Assembly (NCBI GenBank): GCA_963744905.1
Contig: CAVUUV010000002.1
Span: forward strand, 261,382 to 325,381
Length of the DNA: 64,000 nt
Origin: an uncultured Acidimicrobiia bacterium
GTDB lineage: Bacteria > Actinomycetota > Acidimicrobiia > Spongiisociales > ZC4RG35
Direction: 5' to 3'
Numbering within the stretch: position 1 is the first letter of the stretch; each line of letters begins with the position of its first letter. Positions 7,817 through 48,719 of this stretch are shown here, in pieces. The position numbers and the translations under genes are program-made. The notes under the pieces are model-generated. The model saw only the letters and a program-made list of their open reading frames with translations, searched no databases and had not been told where the DNA came from.

Positions 7817-7825
7817 GACCGCCTC

Positions 7826-23666: not shown

Positions 23667-23679
23667 GCCGTTCTCCTTT

Positions 23680-27843: not shown

Positions 27844-28495
27844 CAGTGGTCACGATCACGTCGACCGAGCCATCGTCTATGGCTTCTGCGACCGCCAGCG
27901 CCGCCCCGGCATCCACGCCGATGACAATGTGATCGTGGGTGGTTCCGGTCAGGGCTCCGGTCTCGACGGAGGACACCGATATGACGGGAGCGGCCCGGAC
28001 CACATAACTGGCTATGCCGTCCTGGCCGACATCGACCAGATCGACCCGGTCGCCTACCCGGATCGAACCACCGGCGGCATGGGCCGCCGTCACCGGTATG
28101 GCCATGGCCCGCAGGCCATCGGGAGCAGGCTCGGAGAGCAGGTCCTGGCTGCCGATCAGCTCGCCGGCCTCGAGCCGTCTGCGAGCAACCCGACCATCGA
28201 GGCCGTCGAACGAGGTGAGAAGCCCGGCCATCACGGAGGCGTCACCTCGGACTCGAGCAGTCTCGAGGTCCCCCACGCCCACCGTCTGTCCGGCCTCTAT
28301 TGCATGCGCGGCCACAACTACGGCCGTCGTGTCGTCGTTGGATCGCAGCAATGCGACGTTGGCCACGAAAGCGAGGAGAGCAGCCAGGGCCACGGCGACA
28401 TGACCCAGACTCAGCCTGGGCAGTCGCCGGGCCCTGAACGGCGCCGGCTGCTCCGGCTCCCCCTCATTCCACCCCACGGTCATGATCACTCCCAT
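27827..28495 (-). CDS. cpaB: CpaB/RcpC-like Flp pilus assembly protein (SAF-domain)
   Basis: N-terminal TM LGHVAVALAALLAFVANVALL, then a beta-rich periplasmic domain; first gene of the tad operon. Confidence 0.6.
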   Translation of the reverse strand: MGVIMTVGWNEGEPEQPAPFRARRLPRLSLGHVAVALAALLAFVANVALLRSNDDTTAVVVAAHAIEAGQTVGVGDLETARVRGDASVMAGLLTSFDGLDGRVARRRLEAGELIGSQDLLSEPAPDGLRAMAIPVTAAHAAGGSIRVGDRVDLVDVGQDGIASYVVRAAPVISVSSVETGALTGTTHDHIVIGVDAGAALAVAEAIDDGSVDVIVTTGADGD

Positions 28496-30116: not shown

Positions 30117-30809
30117 TCAGAAGATAATCCCCAGCAGGATCCCCAGCACCAACAGGCTTGCTCCCACCAGGATCAGCCGTATCGGGTTGATGGCGGGGGG
30201 CAGCCACTCCTCGATCGACTCTTCGACCAGGCCGAGGGCGCCCACGACGAGCGCTATCAGCCCACCGATCAGCGTGATCGCGGCGGCGATGCCGGGCAGA
30301 AAGATGGCCAGGATGATCAGGGCAGCGAGGCCGACCCATACCCAGGGCCCCGACCGGGCGAGACCCCAGAGGTCCTTGGCCTCGAGGGCCACCGATGAGA
30401 GCTCCTTGCTCAAATCCTGGCGGACCTCGTCGACGTCCTGACGCAGGTCATCGACGAGCGATGGCCCCGGCTCCTCCTCTTCCGTGCGGAAGGCTTCGTG
30501 GACCCGCTCGCGCTGAACCCGTTTCTCGCCCCTTCTGTAGGGAGCGGTCTCGGCCAGGAAGCTCTCGTGCTCGTTGAGCCGCAGGATCAGGTCCTCCCCG
30601 TCGGCCCTCAAGGTGACGCTCTTCTCGTCGCGAGGGCGGATGGCCACTTCATACAGCTTCCACGTGCCCAGCTCCGTGCGACCCGAGTTGAGACGGATCG
30701 TGCCCTGCTCGATCGTCACCATCGCCGGCAGCACGGAGGGCTCGTCGGGGAGCTGCATCTCACCGAAGTAGACAGGCATACCCCCCATAATCGTCCATCC
30801 GTCGGGCAT
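30117..30809 (-). CDS. Hypothetical membrane protein (soluble N-domain + 2-3 C-terminal TM helices)
   Basis: Coding-like ORF; hydrophobic C-terminal WVWVGLAALIILAIFLPGIAAAITLIGGLIALVVGALGL. Confidence 0.45.
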   Translation of the reverse strand: MPDGWTIMGGMPVYFGEMQLPDEPSVLPAMVTIEQGTIRLNSGRTELGTWKLYEVAIRPRDEKSVTLRADGEDLILRLNEHESFLAETAPYRRGEKRVQRERVHEAFRTEEEEPGPSLVDDLRQDVDEVRQDLSKELSSVALEAKDLWGLARSGPWVWVGLAALIILAIFLPGIAAAITLIGGLIALVVGALGLVEESIEEWLPPAINPIRLILVGASLLVLGILLGIIF

Positions 30810-30839: not shown

Positions 30840-31040
30840 CGCACACTCTGTGAACGCTTTTGGCGACGACGGCCGAGATTCGGTTCACAGAACTACCGGC
30901 CGCCTCCACCACCGCACACTCTGTGAACGCTTTTGGCGACGACGGCCGAGATTCGGTTCACAGAACTACCGGCCGCCTCCACCACCGCACACTCTGTGAA
31001 CGCTCTTGGCGACGACAGCCGAGATTCGGTTCACAGAGAA
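30840..31040. repeat. Tandem direct repeat, 73-bp unit x ~2.7, each unit with internal inverted repeat CTCTGTGAAC...GTTCACAGA
   Basis: Units start at 30840, 30913 and 30986. Copies 1 and 2 are identical; copy 3 diverges after ~50 bp. Confidence 0.85.
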
Positions 31041-31055
31041 GGTGACGATGCGCGG

Positions 31056-31331
31056 TCAGCCGGCGCGACGGGAGCCGATCTGGCGTTCCCGTCTCACCCG
31101 ACGGCGCTCACGTTCGGACATGCCGCCCCAGATCCCGAACTTCTCACCGATCTCGATGGCGAAGTCGAGGCACTCGGCCCGCACCTGGCACTCGGCACAG
31201 ATGGCCTTTGCCTTGCGGGTCGAAGCCCCTCGCTCCGGAAAGAAGAGGTCGGCGTCGGCTCCCCGGCAGTTGGCATAGTCCTGCCATGACAACTCCCCTA
31301 CTGCCAGCGCCTCGATGAGCTTGCCTTGCAT
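31056..31331 (-). CDS. whiB: WhiB-family transcriptional regulator (Fe-S cluster, four conserved Cys)
   Basis: WQDYANCRG...C...CAEC...C plus C-terminal GIWGG and basic tail; start MQGKLIEAL with GAGGGG RBS. Confidence 0.85.
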   Translation of the reverse strand: MQGKLIEALAVGELSWQDYANCRGADADLFFPERGASTRKAKAICAECQVRAECLDFAIEIGEKFGIWGGMSERERRRVRRERQIGSRRAG

Positions 31332-31342
31332 TCCGGGGCATC

Positions 31343-31356
31343 CCCTCACACGCGTG
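31343..31356. promoter_or_regulatory. Perfect 14-bp palindrome CGTGTAATTACACG in whiB-sdhC divergent intergenic region (candidate operator)
   Basis: Exact self-complementarity. AT-rich in a 68% GC genome. Located 12-25 bp upstream of the whiB start codon. Confidence 0.35.
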
Positions 31357-32205: not shown

Positions 32206-34125
<1,920 letters not shown>

Positions 34126-34262
34126 ATCCCCCCTACCTCCCGACTCACGTCGGCAGGGACCTTCCCCCTGCCTCCGGCAGGGGGACAAAGAGAGAGTCTG
34201 TCCCCCGAGCGAGCGAAGGCGGGCCCCACGTCGCAGACGTGGGGTAGGGGGGCGAGCCGGCC

Positions 34263-35027
34263 ATGAACATCACACTTCAGGTCTGGCGTCAGGAAGGGCC
34301 CGAGCGGGCGGGCAGATTCGAGACCTACCAGGTCAACGACGTCGAGCCGGAGATGTCCTTCCTGGAGATGCTGGACGTCCTCAACGAACGTCTCGTCCAT
34401 CAAGGAGAGGAGCCGGTCACCTTCGATCACGATTGCCGGGAGGGGATCTGCGGTACGTGCGGGGTGATGATCGACGGCCAGGCCCACGGCCCCCAGCTGG
34501 GTACGGCCACCTGCCAGCTGCACATGCGCAAGTTCAGCGACGGCGACACCATCGTGGTCGAGCCGTGGCGAGCTTCCGGATTCCCCATCGTCAAGGATCT
34601 GGTGGTGGACCGCAGTGCCTTCGATCGCATCATCGAGGCGGGCGGCTATATCACGGTCGATACCGGCTCGGCTCCCGACGCCAACCTGATCCCGGTTCCG
34701 AAGGAGGTGGCCGACACCGCCTTCGACGCCGCCGCCTGCATCGGTTGCGGAGCCTGCGTGGCGGCCTGTCCCAACGGAGCCGCCAACCTGTTCACCTCCG
34801 CCAAGATCGCCCATCTCAACATGCTTCCCCAGGGTCAGGCCGAGCGGTGGGAGCGAACCCAGGCGATGGTGGAGACCATGGAGCGCTACTTCGGCTCCTG
34901 CACCAACCACGGCGAGTGCGAGAAGGCCTGTCCCAAGTCGATATCCATCGACTTCATCGCCATGATGAACCTCGACTACGCCAAGGCGAAGTGGAAGAAC
35001 CGCCGCCTCATGGCCCAGCGCAGCTGA
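34263..35027 (+). CDS. sdhB: Succinate dehydrogenase/fumarate reductase iron-sulfur subunit
   Basis: 2Fe-2[11 protein letters not shown] and 4Fe-4S/3Fe-4[13 protein letters not shown] motifs. Confidence 0.9.
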
Positions 35028-35143
35028 TCCCCCGCCTCCCAACTCAAGGGTCGTTGGGCCTATGGAAGGCGATTAGCCTGCGACCAGCATTTCCCTGAGG
35101 GCCTCTGGAGAACTCGGGCCACCGTCCGCCGTGACGGGAACGA

Positions 35144-36617
35144 GTGACGAATGTGGACCGGGCCGGTCCACCAGAGATGGGAGTGGAAGTGGGCAAAACC
35201 TCAGGGTTCGACCGAACGTCCGAACGCGGGGCGGTGGCGATTCTCGTGGCGGCCGCCCTCTTGGTCTTGATGGGTTTCGCCGCCCTGGTCGTCGACGTTG
35301 GAGCCGGCTTCAGCGAACGCAGGCAGGACCAGAGCGCAGCGGATTTCTCCAGCCTCGCCGCCGTCCAGTTCGCCCGAGGCAGCGCCAACAAGCAGACGGC
35401 GGCCGACAACGGAGCCGCCGAAGCCCGGGCAGTGGCCGAAGCAAGTATGGACGTGACTCTCACCGCCTCCCAGTGGTCGAACTGCACAGATCCAGGGCGC
35501 CCCAGTCAGTTCACCGTCGTCTCCACTACCAGCCCCTGCATCTCGTTCACGGCCAATCTCCAGAAGTCGAGAGTGGTCATACCGACGATCGACGTGAATA
35601 CCACGTTCGGAAAGGCACTGGGCTTCGCCAAGCTGCAGACGTCGGCTCTCGCTGAAGCCCAGGGCGACCTGAGTCAGGAAGGGCGAGTCATGCCCTTCGG
35701 CCTGCCGGGCGGCTCCGCCGGACAGACCGAAGTGTGTCTCCGGGACAGCAACTCGGTGCCGGGCCCCCTGTGATGGGCCCGACAGCGGGAATTTCGGGAC
35801 TCTCGACTTCTCTCTGTACGGCAACGACACGGTGGGGACTGTCGAGACATGCGGCAATGCCATGTCCCAGGACAAACTGGGGCAAACATGGTCGTGGGCG
35901 TGGACCACCCCCTAGCGACCGCCTCGGCGGAACCGCGCCGACGAGGCCTACTGTCCGATCTTCAACGCTCGCCCCAACCACGTCGACGGACAGACCGGCA
36001 TAGGGTCGGCATTGTACCGGGCATGGTGGCCGGAACCAGCCGGACTGAGCGGATACGTGCCCGGGCGGATCGCACGGGGGCAAACCGATCACGGTGGAGG
36101 GGGATCGAATGGGGTCGACGACACTGGGCTGTGGCATTACATCGACGCCTCCAGCCCCTCAGCCGCCTGCTGTGACGGCGTCTCGGACACCACCGAAATG
36201 GCCTCCTGCATTGCCGACTGGAGAGCCGGCAACTACAACAACCCGCTCTTCACGCTGGCGATAGCCGACGCCGTGCGCTTCGGCGCCGTACCCGTGCTCG
36301 ATGCCGGTGCCTGGGGAAACGGAACCAGTACCTATGGCATCGCCGACATCGTCCCTGTTATTAGTGGGGCTGCAATAGCTCCGGCGGTAACGGAAATGGA
36401 AATGGGAACGGGAACGGTGGAGGATCAGGATCGAGCTGTGCCATCATCCACTATCCCGCCGACCCCGCGCCTCCTCGGGTCTGGGCAGCACGGTGAACGG
36501 AGCAACCGGCTCAATGCAGTCACCGCGTTCGTGCTGGATGTGGAGATGCTCCCTGAGCCACTCCGTTCGAACTTCCCCACCAGCCCCGAACAGGTGGACT
36601 ATGCACTCACGAAATGA
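35144..36617 (+). pseudogene. TadG-like pseudopilin gene disrupted by a frameshift (~35760, C5 run) and an in-frame TAG (35913..35915)
   Basis: 35144..35773 encodes a TadE/G N-domain (ERGAVAILVAAALLVLMGFAALVVDVG). Protein-like sequence continues in the next frame (CDGPDSGNFGTLDFSLYGN...WAWTTP*). After the TAG it continues as ...ALYRAWWPEPAGLSG... to 36617. Confidence 0.45.
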
Positions 36618-37058
36618 AGACGAAACGAAACGACGAGCGAGGGGTGGCGCTGGTGGAGATGGCACTCCTCACCCCGTTCCTGGTTCTTCTGCTCCTCGGC
36701 ATGATCGAGTTCGGCTGGCTGTTCGCCCAGAATCTCGACATCAAGCACGGCGCCCGGGAGGCGGCACGGATGCTTTCGGTCAACGACGATCCTGGCGGGG
36801 GAGGCACCCAGTCCCAGAACATCATCACCGGTGTGTGCGTCGATGGACCTCTATCCCGGCACCACAGTGCAACTGATCCAGTCCGGTACGACCGTTGATT
36901 CGCCGGCCTCGGCCGTCGTATCGATTGCGGCGGGACAGAACACCTTGACCGGTTTCCTGGACTGGGCGATTCCCGCCTCGATGACCATTTCCTCTACCGC
37001 CGAAACCCGCCTGCAGAAGGAAGCGGACTGGACATCGGGCTCTGGCTCATGTCCGTGA
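36614..37058 (+). CDS. TadE-like pseudopilin, frameshifted near 36835 (GTGTGTG tract)
   Basis: N-terminal ERGVALVEMALLTPFLVLLLLGMIEFGW (36614..). Continues in the neighbouring frame as ...ASMDLYPGTTVQLIQSGTTVDSPASAVVSIAAGQNTL... to 37058. Confidence 0.45.
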
Positions 37059-37468
37059 CGCGGAGAGAGCCTCAGCCCGAACGGGGGGCGAGCCTCGTGG
37101 AGTTCGCCCTGGTCCTTCCGCTTCTGATTGTGCTCCTATTCGGGCTGATCGAGTTCAGTTGGGGCTTCGCCCAGGCTTTGGACGTGAAGCAAGTTGCGCG
37201 GGAGGTTGGCCGCCTGGCCGCGGTCGATGGAACCCAGGCCGACATCGACGCCAAGGCGTGCGGATCTCGGCTGGCAGAGGTCGGAACGGCGTCCGTGTCG
37301 GGTGGGACGACGGCTGGCGAAACGGCAATCATCACGGTCTCGGCTGATCTGCATCAGATCACAGGTCTGTTCGGTGAGTTCTTCGGGTCCGCCGGGGTGC
37401 TCGACTCGACGATCGAAGTTCGTCTCGAGCAAGACCTGACCAACTGGTCCGGAACGACCTGTCCCTGA
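37049..37468 (+). CDS. TadE-like pseudopilin
   Basis: ERGASLVEFALVLPLLIVLLFGLIEFSWGFAQALDVKQVAREVGRLAA. Confidence 0.65.
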   Translation: MSVTRREPQPERGASLVEFALVLPLLIVLLFGLIEFSWGFAQALDVKQVAREVGRLAAVDGTQADIDAKACGSRLAEVGTASVSGGTTAGETAIITVSADLHQITGLFGEFFGSAGVLDSTIEVRLEQDLTNWSGTTCP

Positions 37469-37695
37469 CCCCAGGCCTGAGGAGTCGGCATCGAAACAGG
37501 CGATTGATACCATCGCACTCGCTGGTAGCCTTTCGGTGGGGCTGGATCGTTCACGTATGGACGTGGCCAACCCCATGGAAGCCAAGGAAGGCTGGGAGTG
37601 CTCAGGGGTACTAGACGGACACGAGGAGAGAATGGCGCCACCATGGTCGAGGTCGCCATCGTGCCGCCACTGTCGAATTCGCCTGGCGTATTGCT

Positions 37696-38364
37696 ATGCG
37701 CCGACAGCTGAGCCGAACAGCACGGGGGCGTGCTCGAGTCGTTGACGCCGACATCCTCTCAGACATCGAGAGCGTGCATGTCGGTAATCAACAACCGTTC
37801 TCCCGCGACGTCCAAGCTGGAGGCACGTCCCAAAGGCGCCGGCTGCGCCACGGCGTCGATCGCGGAGCGACCCTGGTGGAGTTCGCCATAGCGTTTCCCT
37901 TGTTGATCCTCTTGCTCATGGCAATCATAGAATTCGGACGCTTGGCCTTCACCTATTCCGAGGTCTGGTCGGCAGCACGTGAGGGAGCCCGATTTGCAAC
38001 CACGGTCGGAGACAATGATGGAAACGGCCTGCCCAACTTCATCGACTGCCCACAGATCCTTGGCGCGGCCCAATCAAAGGTGACATTTCATCCACTCACG
38101 GCCAGTGATATCGAGGTCATCTACGAAGATCAGGCCTCGCCTCCCAATACCATCGCCAGCTGTCAGACTCCACCAGCACCACCCGCGAAGACTCCGCCCA
38201 ATCCCGTCGATGCTGGAAACATCGACCCAGGCACCCAGATCAAGGTAGTAGTCCACTCGACATACGACTCGATTGTCCCCCTGGTCGGCGTGTTTCTCGA
38301 TGGGCTGAGCTTGGACTCCACCCAGATCAGGTCCGTTCACTACGAGGTCAAGAATGGCTCATGA
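37696..38364 (+). CDS. TadE-like pseudopilin (true start probably internal)
   Basis: DRGATLVEFAIAFPLLILLLMAIIEFGRLAFTYSEVWSAAREGARFA. Confidence 0.6.
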   Translation: MRRQLSRTARGRARVVDADILSDIESVHVGNQQPFSRDVQAGGTSQRRRLRHGVDRGATLVEFAIAFPLLILLLMAIIEFGRLAFTYSEVWSAAREGARFATTVGDNDGNGLPNFIDCPQILGAAQSKVTFHPLTASDIEVIYEDQASPPNTIASCQTPPAPPAKTPPNPVDAGNIDPGTQIKVVVHSTYDSIVPLVGVFLDGLSLDSTQIRSVHYEVKNGS

Positions 38365-38791
38365 GTCTGATCGAGAACGCGGTGCGGCCGTTGTCGAGTT
38401 GGCGTTCGTCACGGCCTTCCTTCTCATCCCCTTGTTGATCGGTTTGATCGACGTTGGGCGCATGATCTACACGAGAATTGCGCTGCAAGAAGCAGCTCAG
38501 GAAGGGGTGCTATATGCCTCATTTCCTGAGGGATCTGTCCCCATTACTGCAGCCGACATTACAGCTCGAGTGATTGAGTCGGTCTCATATCCTCCACTCG
38601 ATTCATCAGGCGTTTCTGTCTATTGCGAGCTCGTGCCTCGGTTGGTCGATGCAGCCGAGGTGGCGGTCCAGGTCGACTACCAGATCGACTCATTCTTTCC
38701 GTTCACCGGCCCCGTGACCATCAGCCGCACGGCCGTCAGTGATCGATTCCTCGACTCATGCCCGGCGGGAAGCCTGAGTCCGTTACCCTAG
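38354..38791 (+). CDS. TadE-like pseudopilin
   Basis: ERGAAVVELAFVTAFLLIPLLIGLIDVGRMIYTRIALQEAAQEG. Confidence 0.65.
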   Translation: MAHESDRERGAAVVELAFVTAFLLIPLLIGLIDVGRMIYTRIALQEAAQEGVLYASFPEGSVPITAADITARVIESVSYPPLDSSGVSVYCELVPRLVDAAEVAVQVDYQIDSFFPFTGPVTISRTAVSDRFLDSCPAGSLSPLP

Positions 38792-38801
38792 GCGAGAGGA
38801 A

Positions 38802-40034
38802 GTGGGATCTGGGATGAGGCAAAATGAAGAAGGCGCCACAGCAATCCTGGTCGCTGTGAGTCTGTTGATGATCTTTGGGCTGGTGGCACTCGGAATTGAT
38901 GGCAGCCTGGCCTTCAATGACCGACGAGGCAGTCAGAACGCTGCGGACATCGCGGCGATGGCGGCTGCTTGGGAATCCTGCAACCCAGCGGACTCCGCCA
39001 CGACTCCTGTGAACGCAGCGCTCGCCGCAGCCGCTGAGAATGGCTACGACAACACCGATGCCGGCGTTCAGGTGAACGTGACGGGACCATCCGCCGCTTC
39101 AGATGGGTGGACCGTTGCGATCCAAAAGGTAAGCGGCGGCGTCTTCGGCCCCGCGACGCCCTACGCACCAGACAACATCGATGTCATCTCAACTGCGACA
39201 GCACACTGCGTCGATCAGCCAATACTTGGCGGCTATGCACTTTTCGCCGGGGCTGCGACTTGTCCCGGAATCAACGAGCTAAACACCACGAGTTCGAGCG
39301 TAACCGTTAACGGTAACGTCCACACAAACGGCGACGTGAACACCGGGGCAAGCTTCGATGTCACCGGCAATGTGACGTATAGAGGCGACAACAAGATAAG
39401 CGATCCCGATACTGAAGCAACCAAGTTTGTCGGCTCGGCAATTAAGTACCCGTTGGACCTTACCCTCAGTGACTACGACCTCGGCAGCCCTCGGGCCGAC
39501 GCCGCCAACGTGTTCGGGGAATACTACGACTTCGGTAGCTCCGTCATAGACGAAAAAGCGCTCACCGGCTGGAGCCCTCCCCTGGCTGTGCTGACCGCGA
39601 CCGGCATCAAGATAACGCACTCAGGTATCTACAGAACGGACGGTGATGTCACACTGGGAAAGGTTGAGCTTGCCCCCGACGTCAGGGTCACATTCGTAGC
39701 CAAAGGTCAGATCAAGCTAACGGGGAACTCGGATTTCGAAGGATACGATCCGATCGAAGGACCAAACGGCCCACGTATGGCACTCTTCTCGGAATACCAG
39801 CCGACCGGAAATAGGTGCAACAACAAGGCGATCACCGTCTCCTCCAACGGAGTGGCATGGGACGGCGTCATCTTTGCCCCCAACGGGTCAGTCGACATCT
39901 CAGCGTCGTCTGCCACCGGGATCAACGGATCGATCATCTCCTTCGTAATCAATCTCTCTGGTTCGAGCATCACGGTCAGCTTTCAGGACGATCCAGATCG
40001 CCCGCCGAACCTGTCAATGGAGCTGATCCGCTGA
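38802..40034 (+). CDS. TadG-like pilus assembly protein
   Basis: N-terminal EEGATAILVAVSLLMIFGLVALGIDGSLAFNDRRGSQNAADIAAMAAAW (TadG N-domain); 410 aa. Confidence 0.65.
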   Translation: MGSGMRQNEEGATAILVAVSLLMIFGLVALGIDGSLAFNDRRGSQNAADIAAMAAAWESCNPADSATTPVNAALAAAAENGYDNTDAGVQVNVTGPSAASDGWTVAIQKVSGGVFGPATPYAPDNIDVISTATAHCVDQPILGGYALFAGAATCPGINELNTTSSSVTVNGNVHTNGDVNTGASFDVTGNVTYRGDNKISDPDTEATKFVGSAIKYPLDLTLSDYDLGSPRADAANVFGEYYDFGSSVIDEKALTGWSPPLAVLTATGIKITHSGIYRTDGDVTLGKVELAPDVRVTFVAKGQIKLTGNSDFEGYDPIEGPNGPRMALFSEYQPTGNRCNNKAITVSSNGVAWDGVIFAPNGSVDISASSATGINGSIISFVINLSGSSITVSFQDDPDRPPNLSMELIR

Positions 40035-40329
40035 TCTCGCGTCCGTCGGACGTCCAAGGCGCCCACGAAGTGGTACCGATGCACTCCACCGCGCCTTGGT
40101 CCTCGCGCTTCCGCGACATGGCGAGAGTCTGGTTCCGTTCCTCGGCCCAGATGTAACCGGTGGACAGGGGAAAGAACCGGCGGAGGTTCCAGCGAACGAC
40201 GGAGGGCCCAATCGGGCGCGGATTTCGCTGCCTTTGGCCGTTCTCCGGCTTGCCGCCGGCTGCTGCGCACCCGCGCATGGCCGACGGACGCGACCTGATT
40301 GATACCGCCCTCCAGCCGGTTTGCCTTCG

Positions 40330-41960
40330 CCCTATCGGCTCTTGAGCCCTCCGCGAGGGCCGTACTGGTACCTGATCCAGACGGTCATCAGCTTCGCTCT
40401 CGATCGGAGGACGCTCCGGCCGCGACTCTCGATTTCGACTACATCCCACGGGCCTTGATGGTCCTACGCAACCAACCTGGGATGGCGGCGAGTCCGGATG
40501 CTGGTGACGGTGTGATTATGACGGGCAGGTCCTCGTCCTGCGAGGAGGATCCGGAGCTTGTAGTTGGCGAAGTTCCGGAAGCCACGGCCGGATCTCTTGA
40601 CGGTTTTGATGGTCAGGTTGGCCGCTTCGGTCTTGCCGTTGGAGGCGCCGGTGTGATGGTGAGCCAGGATCTCAGTTCGCCACCGGGTCAGGGTCTTGGC
40701 GAGGCGACGCAGTTCGGGTCCGGACTCGTCGTCGAGACACCATTCGGTCGCCCGGTCGAGGGCCGCTTCAGCGGCGGCGGGGTCGTCGGTGAGATACACA
40801 TCACGGACATACTCCTTGGCTACCCAGGCGTCTTGGACCAGCCCGTCAGCGTCGCCCTCTCGGAGAGCCCGATGGATCCGCTCCCATCCCCGCTCGTCGA
40901 CCCGTTCGGCCGCCATCAACAGCAGCTTACGCACCCCAAAGAGGGGATCTCTCTTGCGGCCCCGATGACCCAGCGTCTCGTTTTGGACTCGCTGACGGCA
41001 CTTGGTGAGCGCCTGGTTGGCGAGACGAACAATGTGGAATCCGTCCACCACCAAGGTCACATCCCAGAGTGCAGAGACCTGGCCGGTGACAGGGTCGACA
41101 CCACAGATGGCGGCCCGGTAGCCCTCATGAGGATCGACCGACACCACCTTCACCGCCTCCAGATGCTCGGCGGACTGTTTTCGCATCCATTCCCGCAGAT
41201 CCTTGGCGTCGCGACCCTCGAACACATCGGCGATCCGACCCGAACGGGTATCTACCACCGACGTCACGAACCGTCGCCGCCGACCCCGCGAAGCCGGCGA
41301 CATCACCGTCTCATCGAACCCGACCTGGGTGGGGAACTCCCAGGACTCAGCATCATCGCCTAGCCGCCCCCCGCCCACACGCCTCACCGCTTCCATCACC
41401 GTTCCCCATGCCACCCCCAACCGCCGCCGACACGACTCAACCGTCCCCTCCACCGCCTCCACCCGGTCGGTCACCCACTCCTCGGCCCGGGCCGTCAACA
41501 CCCGCCGAGGGGCGGCAATGTCGGGCCGCTGCTCGGTCCACGTCCTCACCAAACAGGAAGGATCGACACACTCCCAGATCCGCTTCCACCACTCCACCCG
41601 CACCGACCGGGCACCCATCGGGACATCCCGCACCGTCACCCACCGGCGGTCCTTGGGCCGAGCCACCAACCCGCACCCTCCACAAGTCACCAGCCCCCGA
41701 ACCGTCTCAATCTCCACCACCACCTCCCCGTCGTCCGTCTCCACCATCCGCCGGACGGTCACATCCCGCCAACCCAACAACACTGAACTACCGTCACCCA
41801 TCAGGGGGACCTCCTGTCGGTACCCGGACCTTGCAGTCACGAGCATCACAGAGGTCCCCCTCTCACCGAAAGACCATCACCTCATCCCAGCTTCGATGAG
41901 TAGGGCCCCTTTGATCCACCTCCTGGTGGCCGAGCAGTAGGAGCAAGAAGCCACTCAAGT
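40330..41960 (-). mobile_element. ISL3-family insertion sequence (ends not resolved)
   Basis: Single transposase gene in a 2-kb gap that interrupts the pseudopilin array. Terminal inverted repeats could not be confidently identified by eye. Confidence 0.4.
40464..41849 (-). CDS. ISL3-family transposase
   Basis: N-terminal zinc-finger region VTCGGCGLVARPKDRRWVTVRDVPMGARSVRVEWWKRIWEC...; DDE domain; ~440-460 aa. Confidence 0.8.
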   Translation of the reverse strand: MMLVTARSGYRQEVPLMGDGSSVLLGWRDVTVRRMVETDDGEVVVEIETVRGLVTCGGCGLVARPKDRRWVTVRDVPMGARSVRVEWWKRIWECVDPSCLVRTWTEQRPDIAAPRRVLTARAEEWVTDRVEAVEGTVESCRRRLGVAWGTVMEAVRRVGGGRLGDDAESWEFPTQVGFDETVMSPASRGRRRRFVTSVVDTRSGRIADVFEGRDAKDLREWMRKQSAEHLEAVKVVSVDPHEGYRAAICGVDPVTGQVSALWDVTLVVDGFHIVRLANQALTKCRQRVQNETLGHRGRKRDPLFGVRKLLLMAAERVDERGWERIHRALREGDADGLVQDAWVAKEYVRDVYLTDDPAAAEAALDRATEWCLDDESGPELRRLAKTLTRWRTEILAHHHTGASNGKTEAANLTIKTVKRSGRGFRNFANYKLRILLAGRGPARHNHTVTSIRTRRHPRLVA

Positions 41961-42040
41961 TCCTCCGGCTTCCTGTCGATATGGACCTCCAAGCGGTCCG
42001 CTACCACTAGGCCTGCGTCGAGCCAGAAAGCACAGGGGTC

Positions 42041-42562
42041 ATGAGGATGGAATCTCGCCGAAACAGACGAGAGCGGGGGGCAACAATGATCGAGTTCGCC
42101 ATAGTGGCGCCTCTCCTGTTCCTCCTGCTCTTCGGGGTCATCGAGTTCAGTCGCCTCATCGGGGCCTACACGTCGGTGTGGACTGCAGCCAGGGAAGGAG
42201 CCCGCTACGCCACCACTTCGGGCGACGACCCCTACAACCCCAACATTCTCCGCTATCGGAGCTGTGACGGAATACTGGCGGCCGCCCAGTCGAAGGCGGT
42301 CCTGAGCAAGGTGACGACCGCCAACATCGACATCTCATGGGTGGCCCCCGACGGGACCGTTCTCGCCGATTGCGATTCCTCAACGGCGCCGCCCGACCCG
42401 GCCACGGATCACAACCTCCTCCTTCCCGACGGAACCAAGATCGAGGTGACCGTTACGGACACCTTCCAGGGGGTATCGCCCATCGTGGGCGGGCTGCTGG
42501 ACGGCCTCGATCTCAGCTCCACTCAACGACGGTCGATCTACCTGGGGGTTCTCGGTGGCTGA
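42041..42562 (+). CDS. TadE-like pseudopilin
   Basis: ERGATMIEFAIVAPLLFLLLFGVIEFSRLIGAYTSVWTAAREGARYA. Confidence 0.65.
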   Translation: MRMESRRNRRERGATMIEFAIVAPLLFLLLFGVIEFSRLIGAYTSVWTAAREGARYATTSGDDPYNPNILRYRSCDGILAAAQSKAVLSKVTTANIDISWVAPDGTVLADCDSSTAPPDPATDHNLLLPDGTKIEVTVTDTFQGVSPIVGGLLDGLDLSSTQRRSIYLGVLGG

Positions 42563-42974
42563 CACCATGAAAGAGAGAGGCGCCGCCGTGGTCGAGATGG
42601 CCTTCCTTACCATCTTCCTCATCGTCCTGGTCACCGGAATCATCGACATCGGACGGGCTATCTACACCGACATATCCGTACAGGAGGCCGCCCAGGAAGG
42701 AGCCCACTACGCCAGCTTCGAGGAGGCCGCCACCGTTGCAGAGATCGTCGACCGGACCGTGAACAGCACCGGCTCGATCACAGTCGATCCCGTCGACGTC
42801 AATATCACCTGTACGGCTGTGACCCGAGGCAAGCGCAATGCCACCCGGGTCGAGGTGTCGGTCGATTACACCCTCGGCCTGATCACCCCTGTCATCTCCG
42901 ACTGGTTCGGAGGGACGCTGACGCTCCACAAGACCGCGGAAGTCGAACGCTTCTACGAGAGTTGCCCGGCATGA
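42555..42974 (+). CDS. TadE-like pseudopilin
   Basis: ERGAAVVEMAFLTIFLIVLVTGIIDIGRAIYTDISVQEAAQEGAHYA; overlaps the upstream gene (ATGA). Confidence 0.65.
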   Translation: MADTMKERGAAVVEMAFLTIFLIVLVTGIIDIGRAIYTDISVQEAAQEGAHYASFEEAATVAEIVDRTVNSTGSITVDPVDVNITCTAVTRGKRNATRVEVSVDYTLGLITPVISDWFGGTLTLHKTAEVERFYESCPA

Positions 42975-43014
42975 ACCGAAACCCTGCCCAACCAAGCACG
43001 AGGACCAGTCGCCG

Positions 43015-44229
43015 ATGAGCACCGTACGCCACATACTGTCGATGAGATCACCTCGAGGGGAAAGGGGCGCCGCCGCCATCATGGTCGCCATCTCCCTTCT
43101 GATGCTGCTGGGTGTCACGGCTCTGGCCATCGACGGCAGCTCGGCCTACAACGATCGTCGAGGCAGCCAGAACGCAGCCGACAACGCTGCCCTGGCCGCC
43201 GCCTGGCAGCAATGCAATCCCGACACCATTGGCTCCACGCCCGAGAACGCGGCCCGGGCAACGGCCGCCGACAACGGTTACGACGACAAGAACCCAGACG
43301 TGACCGTCACTCCCACCCAGGTGAGTGCCGGCGTCTGGGAGGTGAAGATAACCAAGCTGCAGGACGGCATCTTCGGGCAGGCCACGCCGTATGCCCCCGA
43401 CGCCCTCACCGTCGTCTCCCAGGCGGTGGCCGAATGCGTGGTCCAGGAGTACCTGGGCAACTACGCCCTCTTCGCGGCGGCCTATGGGTGCTCCGGAGAC
43501 GAGATATCCGTCACGAGCTCCAATATCGACGTCACTGGCGGCGTCTTCTCCAACGAGCAGATCACGATCAGTGGCGGCGGCCCCGGCGTCACGGGTGACA
43601 TCATCAACCGCGACCCCTCGGGTGGCAGCGACGGAACCTACGACAAGGGACCACCCCAGAAATATCCGGTCGACCTCGATATCACCGACTTCCGCCCCGG
43701 CGGCACGGAAAGCAGCGACCCCAACTACCACGCCGCTTCCGGAAACATCGACAGCAACTGGCTGGTCAATAACGGCTACACGACGATGGTTTCCGGCACA
43801 CCCAACCTGACGGTATCGGGAATCTACTACTCACCGGGTTCCATCACCCTGATCAAGGGCCTCACCACCAATCCGGGCGTGAAGGCGACCTTCGTGGCAG
43901 AGAAGGACATCCAGATGCAACAGAAGGTGACCCTCACCGGCTATGCCAACGTGGTCAGCGGCGCCTACTCTCCGTTGGCCCTCTTCGCCAACGACCCGGG
44001 ATCACCGTCGTGCAACCGGACGGCCATAAAGTTCGCCACCAGCGAGACCAAGGCCATAACCGGGCTCATCTTCGCTCCCAACGGGGCGGTGGATATGTCA
44101 GGGTCTACCATCGAGGTCAACGGCTCGATTCTCGCCTACCGCATCAACGCCTCGACCTCGTCTCTCACCGTGACCTGGCAGGACGCCCCCGGCGCTCCCG
44201 ACGACTTCGTGGTCAATCTCCTCGAGTAG
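43015..44229 (+). CDS. TadG-like pilus assembly protein
   Basis: ERGAAAIMVAISLLMLLGVTALAIDGSSAYNDRRGSQNAADNAALAAAW; 404 aa. Confidence 0.65.
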   Translation: MSTVRHILSMRSPRGERGAAAIMVAISLLMLLGVTALAIDGSSAYNDRRGSQNAADNAALAAAWQQCNPDTIGSTPENAARATAADNGYDDKNPDVTVTPTQVSAGVWEVKITKLQDGIFGQATPYAPDALTVVSQAVAECVVQEYLGNYALFAAAYGCSGDEISVTSSNIDVTGGVFSNEQITISGGGPGVTGDIINRDPSGGSDGTYDKGPPQKYPVDLDITDFRPGGTESSDPNYHAASGNIDSNWLVNNGYTTMVSGTPNLTVSGIYYSPGSITLIKGLTTNPGVKATFVAEKDIQMQQKVTLTGYANVVSGAYSPLALFANDPGSPSCNRTAIKFATSETKAITGLIFAPNGAVDMSGSTIEVNGSILAYRINASTSSLTVTWQDAPGAPDDFVVNLLE

Positions 44230-44628
44230 GCTCCACCCCGGCGGAGTCGCCGTGTTCTGGCCGCAGCCTCCAACGCCTCCAGATGCATGCCGCGGACCAG
44301 AACCCCGCTGACGGCCTCACGAGGTTCGCACGTTGGTGGGATACGGCTCCCGCTGGGTGATCAGCCTCCTCCGGTGCAGCCCAACTGTCAGCGCCTTGAA
44401 GGGAGATCGCAAAACGAAAGCGCTCGTCCATGGGCCAAGGGGCGCATTCGTACCCTTCGCCGATGTGACGGACTCATCCATTGGCAGTCGAAACCCTGTC
44501 CCGCGTAGGCTGCGGCGGCAGGGTCGGATCCGCGTGAGGTCACCTATTGCGCGAGCAGGGGTGGGCGTTTAGCCTGACCGCAGAGAGTGACCAGGGCGGT
44601 CACAGTCTGAAGGCAACCGAGGGGTCAA

Positions 44629-45180
44629 ATGGGAGGCTTCGAGTCGAAGAACCAAAGGCGCGTCCCGGCGCGGCGTCGGGAGCGAGGCGCATCGCTGGTG
44701 GAGATGGCCCTCGTCCTGCCACTCTTGGTGATGCTGCTCTTGGGGATCGTCAGTTCGGGCATCGCCTACAACCACCAGCTCAGCCTGACCCACTCGGCTC
44801 GGGAAGCGGGCCGCTATGGCGCCACCCTGCCGGTCGACAACTTCGCATCCATGAGTGGGTGGCTTTCCGCCGTCGAAACCAGGGCCATAGACAGCGCCAC
44901 CGGCTCCCTCAACGCCGGGACCCCGGGCCTGTACATATGCGTCGCCTACGTGTTCCCCAACGGAACCGCCGCCGACGACTCGACCGCCAGACGTATCAAC
45001 AGCGCCGGGACCGTGACCACCGATTCCGGAACGTGCTTCTCTGACGGACGGCCCAACGACGAGCGCCGGGTCCAGGTCGAGGTCCGTCGAGACGTGGACT
45101 TCAACGCCCTTCTGTTCCAGACCACCATCACCCTCCACTCCCAGGCCGCCAACAAGTTCGAGGCGGCGTTGGGGGCATGA
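44629..45180 (+). CDS. TadE-like pseudopilin
   Basis: ERGASLVEMALVLPLLVMLLLGIVSSGIAYNHQLSLTHSAREAGRYGA. Confidence 0.65.
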   Translation: MGGFESKNQRRVPARRRERGASLVEMALVLPLLVMLLLGIVSSGIAYNHQLSLTHSAREAGRYGATLPVDNFASMSGWLSAVETRAIDSATGSLNAGTPGLYICVAYVFPNGTAADDSTARRINSAGTVTTDSGTCFSDGRPNDERRVQVEVRRDVDFNALLFQTTITLHSQAANKFEAALGA

Positions 45181-46913
45181 TGAGCCGCTGGAATCCTCGC
45201 GAGGAGAAGGGAGCCACCCTGATCATCGTGACGGCCGCCCTGCTGATGCTGTTTGGAGCCGCGGCCTTGGCCGTCGACATGTCCGGTCTCCGCTCCGACA
45301 TACGCTCCGACCGGCTGGCAGCCGATGCGGCCGCAACGGCCGGCGCCGCCTTCATCAACCCATTCGCCGGCAGCCAGGCCGACCAGGCCTGTGAGGCGGC
45401 ATGGAACTACCTGCAGCTCAACTTGAGCGACGCCAATACATCTGTGTCGCCGCCGAACTGCACCGTCTTCGCCGGGTCCTGCATCCCCTCTATCGTCCGC
45501 CAGGCAACGGCATCCGCCGGACCATACAACTTCACGATCACCCATCCCGTCCCCGACAACGACCCCCTGATGGCCGGACAGGCCATCAACCTGGAAATCG
45601 ACGGCGCGCCTTGTCAGCGGCTGGGAGTGGAGGTCAAACGCGTCCGCGATTACTACTTCGCGCCCGTGATGGGTTTCGACTCCGGCTCTACCACCATCCA
45701 CAGCGTGGCCCGGATCGCGGCCGACATCGGGGAGGGAGAGGTCGTGCCCCTGCTGGTGCTGGAGCCCACCTCGTGCAATGCCCTCTACGCCAGTGGTCAG
45801 GGCGGAGTCACCGTCGACTACTACCAGGACTCGCCGGGTTTCATCGTCGTCGACTCCGATGCCAACGGCGGAAATGCTCCAAACAACTGCACCGCCAACC
45901 GGTACGCCATAGACGCCCAGGGCAACAACAACGGCTGGATCCGGGCACTGCCCGTGCCGGCACCCCAGAACATCCCCTCCGCCATCCTGTCCTACGCCCT
46001 CTCGGGTAAACCCGGCACCAACGCTGCCTATGCCTACGACCCCAATGACCTGGTCACACCGGCAGCCGGCGTCGATCCATCGGATCCGGCTTACACCGCA
46101 TTCCGTCTCTACCCCACCCCGCAGCCGATCTCACGTCGGATCACCCGGGCACCGATCGACTGGCGCTACAACTGCAAGTCGAGCTATCCGGATTACCTGG
46201 GGTGGGTCCCGGTCGACGGATGCCCGGATGCTGCTGCTCCTCACATCGACCAGTTGATATCCCGCTATGGGGGAAACGCCTCGCCCATGGGGATTTCACA
46301 ACGCTGGTTTGGCACCTCCGGCTTCTCGTGCTCCCCTGCCACCGACATGACCGTGTCTGGTAACTGGTACGTCGATTGCCCGGGTGGATTCATCGTGAAT
46401 GGCGTGAACATCACCTTCCAGGACGGCGATGTGGTCTTCGACGGCAACGTCGATCTTCGATCATCGGGAACGCTGACCATCAACCCGAGCCCCACTGCCG
46501 ACCACGTCGTCTACGTCCGCAATGACGGAAATCTCCTCAAAGGCGCCCAATCCTCGATCGACATGGAGAGGGTGTTCGTCTATCTGGCGGGTGGAAACTT
46601 GGATCTCACCGGTGGCGACGGAGGCCTTACATGGATCGCTCCGATCAGCGGCGACTTCGAGGACCTGGCCCTCTGGGCCGAGGCCGATCTCCAGTTCCAG
46701 ATCGGTGGCCAGGCGGGAAACACCCTCACCGGCACCTTCTTCACCCCGCTCAGCAACCCCTTCACTCTGACCGGACAGGGTGGACAATTCCAGACCGATG
46801 CCCAATTCCTCACCCGCCGTCTCGAAGTGAAGGGACAGGGCGAGGTGAAGATGCAGCCCGACCCCACCCGCCAAACCCTCATTCCCATTCGCGCCGTCAA
46901 GCTCATCCGCTGA
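45177..46913 (+). CDS. TadG-like pilus assembly protein (578 aa)
   Basis: EKGATLIIVTAALLMLFGAAALAVDMSGLRSDIRSDRLAADAAATAGA; ATGA overlap with the upstream tadE-like gene. Confidence 0.65.
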   Translation: MMSRWNPREEKGATLIIVTAALLMLFGAAALAVDMSGLRSDIRSDRLAADAAATAGAAFINPFAGSQADQACEAAWNYLQLNLSDANTSVSPPNCTVFAGSCIPSIVRQATASAGPYNFTITHPVPDNDPLMAGQAINLEIDGAPCQRLGVEVKRVRDYYFAPVMGFDSGSTTIHSVARIAADIGEGEVVPLLVLEPTSCNALYASGQGGVTVDYYQDSPGFIVVDSDANGGNAPNNCTANRYAIDAQGNNNGWIRALPVPAPQNIPSAILSYALSGKPGTNAAYAYDPNDLVTPAAGVDPSDPAYTAFRLYPTPQPISRRITRAPIDWRYNCKSSYPDYLGWVPVDGCPDAAAPHIDQLISRYGGNASPMGISQRWFGTSGFSCSPATDMTVSGNWYVDCPGGFIVNGVNITFQDGDVVFDGNVDLRSSGTLTINPSPTADHVVYVRNDGNLLKGAQSSIDMERVFVYLAGGNLDLTGGDGGLTWIAPISGDFEDLALWAEADLQFQIGGQAGNTLTGTFFTPLSNPFTLTGQGGQFQTDAQFLTRRLEVKGQGEVKMQPDPTRQTLIPIRAVKLIR

Positions 46914-46970
46914 GTCTGAGCGAGATTCTGCCCCGGGTAACGTGGCCTGATGCGCGCCACACCGCCCGTA

Positions 46971-47822
46971 ATGCCCGCACTGATCACCCCCTTCGACCAG
47001 GCGGATGACCTCGACCCGAAGGCTCACGCCCACAACGTCGGCTTCCTGACCGGCATAGGCTGTGAGGGATTCGTCCTCGGCGGCTCCAACGGAGAGGGCC
47101 CCTACCTGGAGCCGGGCGAGAGACGCCAACTGCTGGAAGCCGCCCGACATGCGGCCCCCAAAGCTCACCTGATGGTGGGCATCATGGCCGAATCGACCCG
47201 CCAGGGAATCTCCCAGGTGGATGAGTGTGAGGCCGCCGACTCGATTCTGGTGATGACCCCCACCACCCTCGTTCGCCGCCAGCCCACCGCCGTCGCCTCC
47301 TACTTCCGGGCCATGGCCGACCACTCCGGGGCGCCGGTCTTCCTCTACTCCGTTCCTCCCACCACCGCCTACAGCCTGGGACTCGACCTCGTCACCGAAC
47401 TGGCCGAGCATCCCAACATCGTCGGGATGAAGGACTCCTCGGGTGACGTGGTGCGGCTCCAGGCCATAGTCGACGCCACTCCGGACGACTTCCTCGTCTA
47501 CTCCGGCTCTTCCCCCGCCGCCACGGCGGCAATAGCCGTGGGAGCGGACGGTGTCATCACCGGCTCGGCCAACTACGCCTTCGGGCTGGTGGCCGCAGTG
47601 GTCCAGGCCGCCCGGACCGACCTGGCCCGGGCTCGCCGTCTCCAGGCCCACCTCACTGCTCTTTCGGAGGCGGTGGAGCGCCTCGGTATTCCCGGTGTGA
47701 AGGCCGCCGCCCGGGCCGCCGGACTCGACCCGGGGCGTCCCCGCCTTCCCCTGGAGCCGCTTGCTCCCCCGTTGGCCGAGGAGGTGGCGCTCCTGGTGGG
47801 GGAACGAACCGGCGTCATCTGA
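46971..47822 (+). CDS. DapA-family (dihydrodipicolinate synthase/N-acetylneuraminate lyase family) aldolase
   Basis: MPALITPF..., GSNGEGPYLEPGERRQL, and Schiff-base lysine region GMKDSSGD. Confidence 0.75.
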   Translation: MPALITPFDQADDLDPKAHAHNVGFLTGIGCEGFVLGGSNGEGPYLEPGERRQLLEAARHAAPKAHLMVGIMAESTRQGISQVDECEAADSILVMTPTTLVRRQPTAVASYFRAMADHSGAPVFLYSVPPTTAYSLGLDLVTELAEHPNIVGMKDSSGDVVRLQAIVDATPDDFLVYSGSSPAATAAIAVGADGVITGSANYAFGLVAAVVQAARTDLARARRLQAHLTALSEAVERLGIPGVKAAARAAGLDPGRPRLPLEPLAPPLAEEVALLVGERTGVI

Positions 47823-47910
47823 GAGCGCCGCCAGAGTTTGAGTACGCGCTCAAAGTCCTGAGGAGCACTGTTACCATCATCCACAGCAGCTTCAGCCAGA
47901 AAGGAAGACC

Positions 47911-48297
47911 ATGGCCGTTCAGTTCCTCACCGGCGAATGGGCCCAGGCCGTTACCGACGCCCTCAACAACCACCCCGGATTCAAGAGCTCCATGGGCTCG
48001 GCCGAGCTGACCATCCAGTTCAAGACGACCGACACTCCCGACGGCGAGGTCGACTACTACATGAACACCTCCGGAGGCGAGGCGCAGCTGGCCATGGGAC
48101 AGGCCGCAGATCCCGACGTCACCATCGCCCAGACCTACGACACCGCCACCGCCATCTCCAAGGGCGAGCTCAACACCCAGACCGCTTTCATGACCGGCAA
48201 GATCAAGGTGTCGGGCAACCTGGCCAAGCTGATGATGCACCAGCGAGCCATCGGAGAGTGGGGATCGGCCGTCAAGGACCTCGACGTCGACTACTGA
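47911..48297 (+). CDS. SCP2 sterol-carrier-like domain protein
   Basis: MAVQFLTGEWAQAVTDALNNHPGF...AFMTGKIKVSGNLAKLMMHQ matches the SCP2 fold. Confidence 0.6.
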   Translation: MAVQFLTGEWAQAVTDALNNHPGFKSSMGSAELTIQFKTTDTPDGEVDYYMNTSGGEAQLAMGQAADPDVTIAQTYDTATAISKGELNTQTAFMTGKIKVSGNLAKLMMHQRAIGEWGSAVKDLDVDY

Positions 48298-48719
48298 GCA
48301 ATCGCCAGCCCGCAATCGTCCAGCGTCGCTTCCATCTCCCCGCCACCGAACTTGAACCGTTCGAAGGAGACCACCTGTTGGATCTCGGAGTCGCTGAGGG
48401 ACTCCCCGAACTCGGGCATCACCGCCGTTATCTCCTTGCCCCCGGCTCCATAGGTAGGACCGTTCTCTTCGGTCCATTTGACCGAGCCCAGGGTCACCCA
48501 GTGGATCTGATCGTCACAGGCGGGGAAAGTGGTCAGCACGCCGGCCAGGGCCGGGCCCGCCCCACCCTGGCCGTTTCCGCCATGACAGGTGGCGCAGCGA
48601 TCGGAGAAGATCTGCTTGCCGGCGTCGAGGTTGGGATCGCCCAGCGACGCAGGGGGGCCGACGCAGGCGGTCAGGAAAACCACCAGGAGCAGCGCCGACC
48701 CGATTCGCCTGCTGCTCAC
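48291..48719 (-). CDS. Mono-haem c-type cytochrome lipoprotein
   Basis: GTG start at 48719 (GTGA overlap). Lipobox LLLVVFLTAC and haem motif CATCHGGNGQGG. Confidence 0.7.
   Translation of the reverse strand: MSSRRIGSALLLVVFLTACVGPPASLGDPNLDAGKQIFSDRCATCHGGNGQGGAGPALAGVLTTFPACDDQIHWVTLGSVKWTEENGPTYGAGGKEITAVMPEFGESLSDSEIQQVVSFERFKFGGGEMEATLDDCGLAIAQ

Follow-up and report, generated by a model that had tools for sequence, protein, structure and literature searches.

TadE/TadG-like gene modules in an uncultured Acidimicrobiia bacterium as candidate tip complexes of a Tad pilus

Tad pili are among the most widespread colonisation organelles of bacteria, and the identity and specificity of their tips have only begun to be addressed, in Myxococcus in 2025. 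A 64-kb stretch of DNA from an uncultured Acidimicrobiia bacterium (Actinomycetota), hereafter called the window, raises the question of what a long array of TadE/TadG-like genes (35144-46913) is doing outside the core tad locus (22257-28495, minus strand). On balance, we favour the explanation that the region is a tandem cluster of four autonomous minor-pilin modules of the Tad (type IVc pilus) system, each of them a priming and tip complex for the Flp pilus. In this study, we describe the gene content of the array, its natural units and their turnover among relatives, and we weigh this explanation against its rivals.

The TadE/TadG-like genes and their natural modules

An open reading frame (ORF) map of 33000-48500 combined with Pfam scans places seven TadE-like genes, four TadG-like genes and an intact ISL3-family transposase gene in 35144-46913. 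The TadE-like ORFs, which start at 36614, 37049, 37696, 38354, 42041, 42555 and 44629, all match PF07811 (TadE) at their N-termini, with E-values of 3e-10 to 1e-15 and scores of 40.6-57.6 bits (gathering cut-off 22.9). PF13400 (Tad/TadG) matches the TadG-like ORFs at 35144, 38802 and 43015 with 30.3, 29.5 and 42 bits, respectively (gathering cut-off 22.3). The last TadG-like ORF, of 578 amino acids (aa) at 45177, had no Pfam or NCBIfam match. Its N-terminus is 47-48% identical to the other TadG N-termini and scores 76 bits on a local N-domain hidden Markov model (HMM) built from the array genes, and the protein also models as pilin-like. The NCBIfam scan returned sub-threshold matches of the Rv3654c/Rv3655c type only. 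A preliminary description of this DNA had proposed an array of TadE/TadG-like genes without machinery of its own. The profile searches substantiate the family membership, to which the gene at 45177 is linked by N-terminal identity, the local HMM and the fold only. From sdhB (34263-35027) up to the DHDPS-family gene (46950-47822), neither an ATPase gene nor a platform gene is present.

Inspection of the translations revealed a G/xxxxE(F/M/L) site, with glutamate at +5 followed by a hydrophobic stretch, in all seven TadE-like proteins. These sites belong to the same motif class as the G/XXXXE[FS] sites of Micrococcus TadE/F (PMC4322843). Glutamate at +5 is also present in the Flp candidate of the core locus (G/LNTAE), and the four TadG-like proteins keep the glycine without a glutamate at +5. 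Rfam identified no element in the region, and a promoter and terminator scan gave 0 promoter-like sites and terminator-like sites at chance level, which is uninformative.

The preliminary description divided the array into three modules, a partition that had to be redrawn after clustering and comparison with relatives. Clustering was based on the C-terminal parts of 114 TadG-like ORFs and 123 TadE-like ORFs, taken from the window together with 100 fetched loci. The TadG-like proteins fall into five families, namely a 578-aa type, a 400-aa E-E-G type, a 450-500-aa type, a 480-510-aa type and a 415-aa type. The TadE families follow this division. Judging from these sequences, the array is made up of four co-evolving modules: a pseudogenised G-E-E set of the 450-500-aa type, the E-E-G cassettes a and b, and an E-G pair. 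Gene order is conserved within modules, stop and start codons overlap, and the E and G families co-vary. The modules also occur by themselves. E-E-G is found as a stand-alone, translationally coupled operon in unrelated contexts (loci L001, L002 and L004), and a pair of tadE and a gene for a protein of about 580-604 aa stands alone among housekeeping genes in L016-L019.

All four modules lie on the plus strand. The decayed G-E-E set (35144-37468) begins with a TadG-like pseudogene of the 450-500-aa family, or F3 (35144-36617; PF13400 E=5e-7), which is split into an N-terminal ORF (35144-35773) and a C-terminal ORF (36012-36617). It is followed by a frameshifted TadE-like gene (36614-37055; PF07811 E=9e-14), of which a 94-aa ORF remains at 36614-36898 and whose homologous frame extends to 37055. 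The second TadE-like gene of the set (37049-37468; 139 aa, PF07811 E=1.5e-12, G/ASLVEF motif) encodes the pseudopilin that is cognate to the F3 TadG family. It is 62% identical to E122 of the relative L015 and groups with the TadE genes accompanying F3 TadG genes.

Cassette a (37696-40034) contains two TadE-like genes, at 37696-38364 (PF07811 E=5e-15, G+C content at third codon positions (GC3) 0.68) and 38354-38791 (145 aa, E=3e-10, GC3 0.62), and a TadG-like gene at 38802-40034 that encodes a 410-aa protein. In the first of these genes the TadE domain begins near 37858, and the annotated N-terminal extension is therefore doubtful. An intact ISL3-family transposase gene on the minus strand (40464-41849; 461 aa, PF01610 E=4e-49, with zinc ribbon PF14690 and helix-turn-helix PF13542) separates cassette a from cassette b (42041-44229). 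The latter consists of TadE-like genes at 42041-42562 (173 aa, PF07811 E=1e-15, GC3 0.79) and 42555-42974 (139 aa, E=6e-12) and of a TadG-like gene at 43015-44229 (404 aa, PF13400 E=1e-10) of the same family as the gene at 38802. The last module (44629-46913) is the conserved pair formed by a TadE-like gene (44629-45180; 183 aa, PF07811 E=3e-13) and the large TadG-like gene of its cognate partner, the 578-aa protein (45177-46913).

It had also been proposed that the N-domains of these proteins are conserved while their C-terminal regions are strongly diverged. The all-against-all comparison bears this out between array genes that are non-cognate, in which similarity is confined to the first 50-60 residues. 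It does not hold between the two E-E-G cassettes, which are collinear paralogues homologous over their full length: 37696, 38354 and 38802 are 44, 46 and 42.5% identical to 42041, 42555 and 43015, respectively, the TadG-like pair over 407 aa. Families differ in this respect as well. In the 578-aa family, conservation is much the same from end to end (59-64% mean pairwise identity), and the 400-aa family keeps the helix (65%) but not the beta-solenoid (37-41%). The diversity of the array is drawn from about five old TadG families, with a cognate TadE family for every one of them, and is not the product of hypervariable C-domains.

Turnover of modules among relatives

Two syntenic relatives, L014 (GCA_041744375.1) and L015, share the right flank of the array with the window, including the DHDPS, SCP2 and HU genes; L014 is a relative at about 65% protein identity. 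Neither array is a copy of the one studied here. L014 holds 9 genes, in the order E-G (415 type), E-E-G, a different ISL3, E-G (490) and E-G (576), and L015 holds 13, which include two 450-500-type modules, one 480-type module, one E-E-G cassette and the 574-aa pair. Copy number and module combination therefore differ among relatives. Divergence is also far from uniform: with respect to these relatives, the flanking genes are 63% (DHDPS) and 76% (SCP2) identical, the tadE and 578-aa pair 62-71% (62-69% for tadE 44629 itself), the G-E-E set 49-77% and the E-E-G cassettes 40-48%. A 400-bp non-coding gap (44230-44628) separates cassette b from the last module in the window, and at this position both L014 and L015 hold an extra pair of tadE and a 490-513-aa tadG. 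A module may have been lost from the gap, or the gap may serve as a promoter region for the conserved pair.

More than 250 homologues of the 578-aa protein were found in many public metagenome assemblies, with identities of 54-72% among the 120 listed, and the small number with a named source are assigned to the Acidimicrobiia, a group of uncultured Actinomycetota. A contig scan with the TadG alignment gave at least six loci, one of them useful; the one close match among those listed was an Acidimicrobiia metagenome-assembled genome. The TadG family of the 400-aa E-E-G type is large: a profile search retrieved at least 610 clusters (50% identity) at E <= 1e-30 and 7,291 at E <= 1e-10. We surveyed 80 metagenome loci holding a 578-aa homologue. 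The cognate tadE was located directly upstream in 60 of 60 surveyed loci, and among the 31 loci whose upstream sequence reaches 2.5 kb or more, further TadE/G genes were present in 10 and the pair was alone in 21. The tadE and 578-aa pair is both stable and widespread as a unit.

Cassette a differs in composition. Its GC3 is 62-68%, compared with 79-84% in cassette b, 79-85% in the last pair and 82-91% in the neighbouring housekeeping genes. Its closest relative is a cassette from another metagenome (L006, 55-67% identity) and not cassette b, and it is bordered on one side by a TadE remnant and on the other by ISL3. The remnant (37598-37711, plus strand, identified in the ORF listing) is a 37-aa TadE 5' fragment with the sequence …GENG/ATMVEVAI… and 72% nucleotide identity to the 5' end of tadE 42041 (family D2). 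The foreign GC3, the closer relative in L006 and these borders indicate that cassette a is a probable import rather than a local duplication. A recent in-situ tandem duplication of E-E-G cassettes was considered separately and rejected on account of the 42-46% identity between them, the GC3 gap of about 15 points and the closer relative of cassette a in L006.

The transposon insertion and the pseudogenised copies noted in the preliminary description are both borne out, with one intact ISL3 transposase gene and two genes that read as broken. A repeat search and a custom scan (at least 18 of 24 matches) revealed no convincing terminal inverted repeats flanking 40464-41849. ISL3 occupies the same site in L005, a contig from a different assembly. 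In L014, a different ISL3-family transposase (5820-6695, minus strand; a 291-aa fragment with 41% aa identity) was observed at an analogous inter-module position after an E-E-G cassette. The recurrence of ISL3 suggests a preferred ISL3 target between modules or a role of ISL3 in cassette mobility. The 430 bp between the tadG stop codon and the transposase gene (40035-40463) are without a recognisable feature. A minus-strand ORF of 157 aa (39976-40449) has no Pfam match, and L005 has a 100-aa minus-strand gene call there. This stretch may be part of the insertion sequence or of the imported segment.

Comparison with L005 also uncovered an allelic difference. This contig is near-identical to 37026-44560 of the window, with about 30 differences, and its positions 216-2060 show about 25% nucleotide divergence from 35178-37025 of the window, over the first tadG and the first tadE only. 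The break coincides with the gene boundary between tadE 36614 and tadE 37049. The substitutions are spread over all base types, with no base bias and no adenine bias, and positions 1-215 at the left end of L005 fail to match the 3' end of the window sdhB. Either recombination has replaced the allele, or the metagenome contig is chimeric.

How reliable are the lesions of the G-E-E set? When aligned to its L015 orthologue G472 (472 aa), the tadG at 35144-36617 shows at least three frame switches, near 35765, 35870 and 35930, and its N-terminal and C-terminal parts retain 70% and 49% identity, respectively. The alignment thus upholds the earlier claim of a decayed tadG and marks this gene as a real pseudogene. 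The tadE at 36614 is also broken: tblastn with L015 E151 and L005 E138 located a frameshift near 36838, the ORF stops at 36898, and the orthologue in the sister strain L005 is intact (138 aa). An independent short-read contig (L100) is 100% identical to 37864-39982 of the window, and the assembly is thus accurate at least over this interval. By contrast, the Flye-style naming of L005 and its several 1-bp indels relative to the window mean that single frameshifts could be artefacts. An assembly error behind the lesions of the tadG was rejected because at least three frame changes lie within 200 bp and the short-read contig confirms neighbouring sequence. For the single lesion in tadE 36614, which is outside any homopolymer, an assembly artefact is possible.

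Altogether, these data draw a mixed picture of the variable repertoire put forward in the preliminary description. Differences in the number and type of modules, uneven divergence, the foreign GC3 of cassette a and the roughly 25% diverged allele of L005 speak for it. On the other side, the variation involves about five old families, and the last pair is stable and widespread.

Candidate tip complexes and competing explanations

AlphaFold2 (AF2) models of the 410-aa and 578-aa TadG-like proteins, with predicted local distance difference test (pLDDT) scores of 86 and 84, share a common predicted layout. An N-terminal helix of about 50 residues (7-60 and 7-57, respectively) forms a pilin-like part together with a small beta head and is followed by a C-terminal beta-solenoid, which in the 578-aa protein is preceded by a middle region. 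ComZ (PDB 6qvi) is the top solved-structure match for the 578-aa model and the fifth for the 410-aa model, and the alignments, of 271 and 337 residues, take in the pilin part too. Pilus-associated tapirin adhesins are also among the fold matches. PDB sequence searches with both TadG profiles gave spurious matches only, and hence no sequence relative with a solved structure. ComZ is a Thermus pilin with an integrated beta-solenoid, which its authors argue fits at the pilus tip only (PMC6561018), and the beta-solenoid PilX minor pilins of cyanobacteria have been proposed as tip plugs (bioRxiv 10.64898/2026.02.12.705559). As models of a ComZ-like pilin with a beta-solenoid, the TadG-like proteins fit a tip position, which lends support to the tip-type role suggested at the outset. 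Their predicted chemistry is compatible with this location. Cysteine counts are even (2, 4 or 10) in all intact array proteins and the ten cysteines of the 578-aa family are invariant, and all globular parts are acidic, with isoelectric points of 4.1-4.9 and D+E well above K+R. These properties fit extracellular disulfide-bonded proteins and argue against unspecific DNA binding; the array proteins are likely extracellular.

Based on these observations, we propose that each module supplies one or two small TadE-like pseudopilins with a TadV-type leader site and one large TadG-like protein, which would assemble through their N-terminal helices into a small complex. Such a complex would prime Flp polymerisation on the tad machine encoded at 22257-28495, 6.6 kb upstream, and might then stay at the distal end of the pilus with its beta-solenoid displayed as a binding surface. 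Different modules would then give pili with different tips. The tadE and 578-aa pair may represent an old, conserved and presumably ancestral module, and the E-E-G cassettes and the G-E-E set may be accessory modules that are gained, lost, exchanged and pseudogenised through birth-and-death and horizontal transfer.

The link between modules and a Tad machine is seen most clearly in relatives. In L039 and L082, co-oriented CpaB-TadZ-TadA-TadB-TadC genes lie 1.3-5.6 kb downstream of the 578-aa homologue, which sits 1.3-2 kb upstream of CpaB, and in L074 the homologue is found 1.6 kb upstream of a likewise co-oriented TadZ-TadA-TadB-TadC set. TadA is downstream in 6 of the 21 loci with enough flank, and in the other 15 no tad gene occurs within the available flank. 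L082 and L033 keep sdhAB beside the modules, as in the window. In the window, 25 kb are enough to hold the four modules and the core set, and the 6.6 kb that separate the array from the core locus contain bpa, a WhiB-like gene and sdhCAB. Because relatives link modules, the tad core and sdhAB, the layout of the window can be read as a rearranged version of a recurrent neighbourhood. Of the evidence available, this recurrence speaks most strongly for the modules being part of a Tad system.

Several points weigh against our proposal. Two tadE genes and a short tadG are already part of the core locus itself, and their relationship to the array genes is only remote. The window ORFs scanned include no prepilin peptidase (Peptidase_A24), and the single Flp system assumed in the preliminary description may hold for these 64 kb rather than for the whole genome. 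The TadG-like proteins have no glutamate at +5 and so may stay membrane-anchored, as proposed for Aggregatibacter TadG. In addition, TadE/F of Micrococcus luteus were not detected in sheared pili, and the authors favoured a basal or wall-spanning structure (PMC4322843). Finally, the even, housekeeping-like conservation of the 578-aa family argues for a fixed structural role of this module at least, rather than for a variable tip.

The latter observations lead to an alternative in which all modules are made together as non-redundant parts of one apparatus, such as a wall-spanning pseudopilus or a base serving to guide or anchor the Flp fibre within a Gram-positive-type envelope, and do not act as alternative tips. 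The M. luteus precedent is in its favour, as the TadE/F-like proteins of the second cluster are all required yet absent from sheared pili (PMC4322843), and so is the tadE and 578-aa pair, which is housekeeping-like in conservation and adjoins the core operon in some relatives. However, a fixed apparatus should not tolerate the variation described above: module content ranges from one pair to 13 genes among relatives, the pair is alone in 21 of 31 loci, and the window itself contains two pseudogenes and the import-like cassette a. We therefore regard a fixed set as unlikely. Even less probable in our opinion is that the products are pilus-independent surface proteins, with the TadG-like proteins anchored by an uncleaved helix, their beta-solenoid serving as an adhesin or as a carbohydrate- or ice-binding-like face, and the TadE-like proteins acting as short stalk partners. 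The uncut helix would be in keeping with the missing glutamate at +5. Yet the ComZ match covers the pilin part of both models, cognate TadE genes with TadV-type sites are always present, and modules are linked to tad core genes in the window and in several relatives.

The similarity to ComZ could also mean that one or more modules are ComZ/PilA2-like DNA receptors, which would capture DNA at the tip of a competence pilus in Tad-dependent natural transformation. The rank of ComZ among the solved matches of both models and the fact that Tad pili drive transformation in the actinobacterium M. luteus (PMC4322843) are consistent with this possibility. Nevertheless, we consider it very unlikely: the globular parts are acidic (isoelectric points of 4.2-4.5 in the comparison with ComZ-like tip pilins), while DNA binding by ComZ depends on lysines (PMC6561018), comEA and comEC were not seen among the window ORFs scanned, and the fold similarity is generic for beta-solenoids. 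Least credible of all is a programmed antigenic or phase variation system, in which recombination among silent copies would exchange or switch the one module that is expressed. The preliminary description had raised antigenic variation with one module expressed at a time, and the presence of several paralogous modules, an insertion sequence and pseudogenes, together with the allele replacement between near-identical strains that ends at a gene boundary, could be taken in this sense. We found no sign of such a system. The array has no invertible segments, tandem repeats or long high-identity repeats of recombination grade, and the best shared 5' coding segments are 81 nt long with 62-70% identity to the reference copy. 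Paralogues with 42-46% identity are too diverged for gene conversion. Moreover, the intact modules all have their own start codons and a coupled gene order, and no Rfam element is present.

Returning to the proposed tip complexes, the concept of multiple TadEFG-like sets per Tad machine is already published: in Myxococcus xanthus, four paralogous KilLMN (TadE/F/G-like) clusters are interchangeable tips of one Tad machine (Herrou et al. 2025, PMC12075869). The present case is a modest extension of this concept to Acidimicrobiia. Both systems comprise several paralogous TadE/F/G-like clusters per genome, most without their own machinery genes, and in each a large TadG-like member, variable in its C-terminal domain and proposed to be located at the pilus end; cysteine-rich proteins are a further common trait. 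Unlike the dispersed Kil Tips, the clusters described here are packed in one tandem array, have mixed formats (E-E-G, E-G and G-E-E), and show visible gain, loss and exchange of modules. Their host belongs to the Acidimicrobiia and gives no sign of predation or of a type III secretion system partner. Furthermore, the C-terminal domain is predicted to be a beta-solenoid, whereas KilN is described as two long helices and a beta-scaffold with no PDB homologue (PMC12075869).

Other known sets are informative too. The array shares with TadE/F/G of Aggregatibacter actinomycetemcomitans and with tad-1/tad-2 of M. luteus the Pfam TadE/Tad N-domains, the G/XXXXE(Y/F) site and a single N-terminal TadG helix, and, with M. 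luteus, the absence of tadV from the locus (PMC4322843). Those bacteria have one set per machine inside the tad operon, whereas four extra sets lie outside it here, with much larger TadG proteins of the beta-solenoid type and turnover between relatives. With ComZ/PilA2 of Thermus thermophilus and the cyanobacterial PilX, the common ground is a pilin scaffold bearing a large beta-solenoid that fits the fibre tip only, and the use, proposed here for the array, of alternative minor-pilin sets to prime different filaments on shared machinery. However, ComZ and PilX are proteins of type IVa pili, no sequence similarity between them and the array proteins is detectable, and the array proteins are acidic where ComZ binds DNA via lysines. 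The type IVa minor-pilin/PilY1 clusters, of which M. xanthus has three, follow the same concept of several priming and tip sets per machine, in a different pilus class and with different protein families.

A broader idea, which we put forward tentatively and hold to be doubtful, is that Acidimicrobiia possess a cassette system for Tad tips, in which self-contained TadE+TadG modules of about five old families are shuffled by gene-boundary recombination, import associated with insertion sequences and gene loss. If so, close strains would carry different beta-solenoid tips on the same Flp fibre, in a manner resembling module swaps in phage tail fibres, and this would be the first multi-tip Tad repertoire outside predatory Gram-negatives, in a Gram-positive-type lineage. 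Modular TadE+TadG sets with predicted ComZ-like beta-solenoid heads are in any case common, tied to the tad core operon in some relatives and assembled in arrays of varying content. The locus thus supplies testable candidate tip adhesins, and comparing the conserved module with the accessory ones could inform on Tad binding specificity in Gram-positive-type envelopes.

The core tad locus and its surroundings

The core locus, which we presume to encode the machine, spans 22257-28495 on the minus strand and is recognised by Pfam matches to T2SSE, T2SSF (twice) and SAF/RcpC and by a weak PF13400 match. Reading in the direction of transcription, it comprises RcpC/CpaB (27827-28495), a 374-aa ORF at the TadZ position (26719-27843), TadA (25454-26722), TadB (24594-25562), TadC (23680-24597), a putative Flp pilin of 63 aa (23475-23666), two TadE-like genes (23098-23505 and 22667-23164) and a short TadG-like gene (22257-22853). 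The Flp and TadE assignments are based on size, position, G/XXXXE motifs (G/LNTAE in the Flp candidate) and weak blastp similarity to array genes. Neither the TadZ/CpaE-position ORF nor the Flp-like ORF had a Pfam or NCBIfam match at E <= 0.01, a single spurious hit aside. Homologues of the former occupy the same position in L039, L074 and L082, and the TadZ and Flp versions of Acidimicrobiia escape the Pfam and NCBIfam copies searched.

Between the core locus and the array, a 73-bp unit is repeated 2.7 times with 98% identity at 30840-31037. This repeat is flanked by an ORF at 30117-30809 and by the WhiB-like ORF at 31056-31349, both on the minus strand. A GTGAAC…GTTCAC palindrome within each unit points to an operator or a mobile repeat.

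On the other side of the core locus, the window encodes two large surface proteins of 699 aa (10410-12509, minus strand) and 1236 aa (13842-17552, minus strand), with cadherin-like, Big_9, PKD and Calx-beta repeats. Located 5-12 kb from the tad core, they make this stretch of the genome rich in adhesion genes. Further away, a polysaccharide cluster (1221-9684) includes genes for a Wzy_C ligase-like protein, two sulfotransferases, a Wzz-like protein, a DegT aminotransferase, a GFO oxidoreductase and a Bac_transf priming transferase. The product may be a sulfated exopolysaccharide, encoded next to the adhesins and the pilus.

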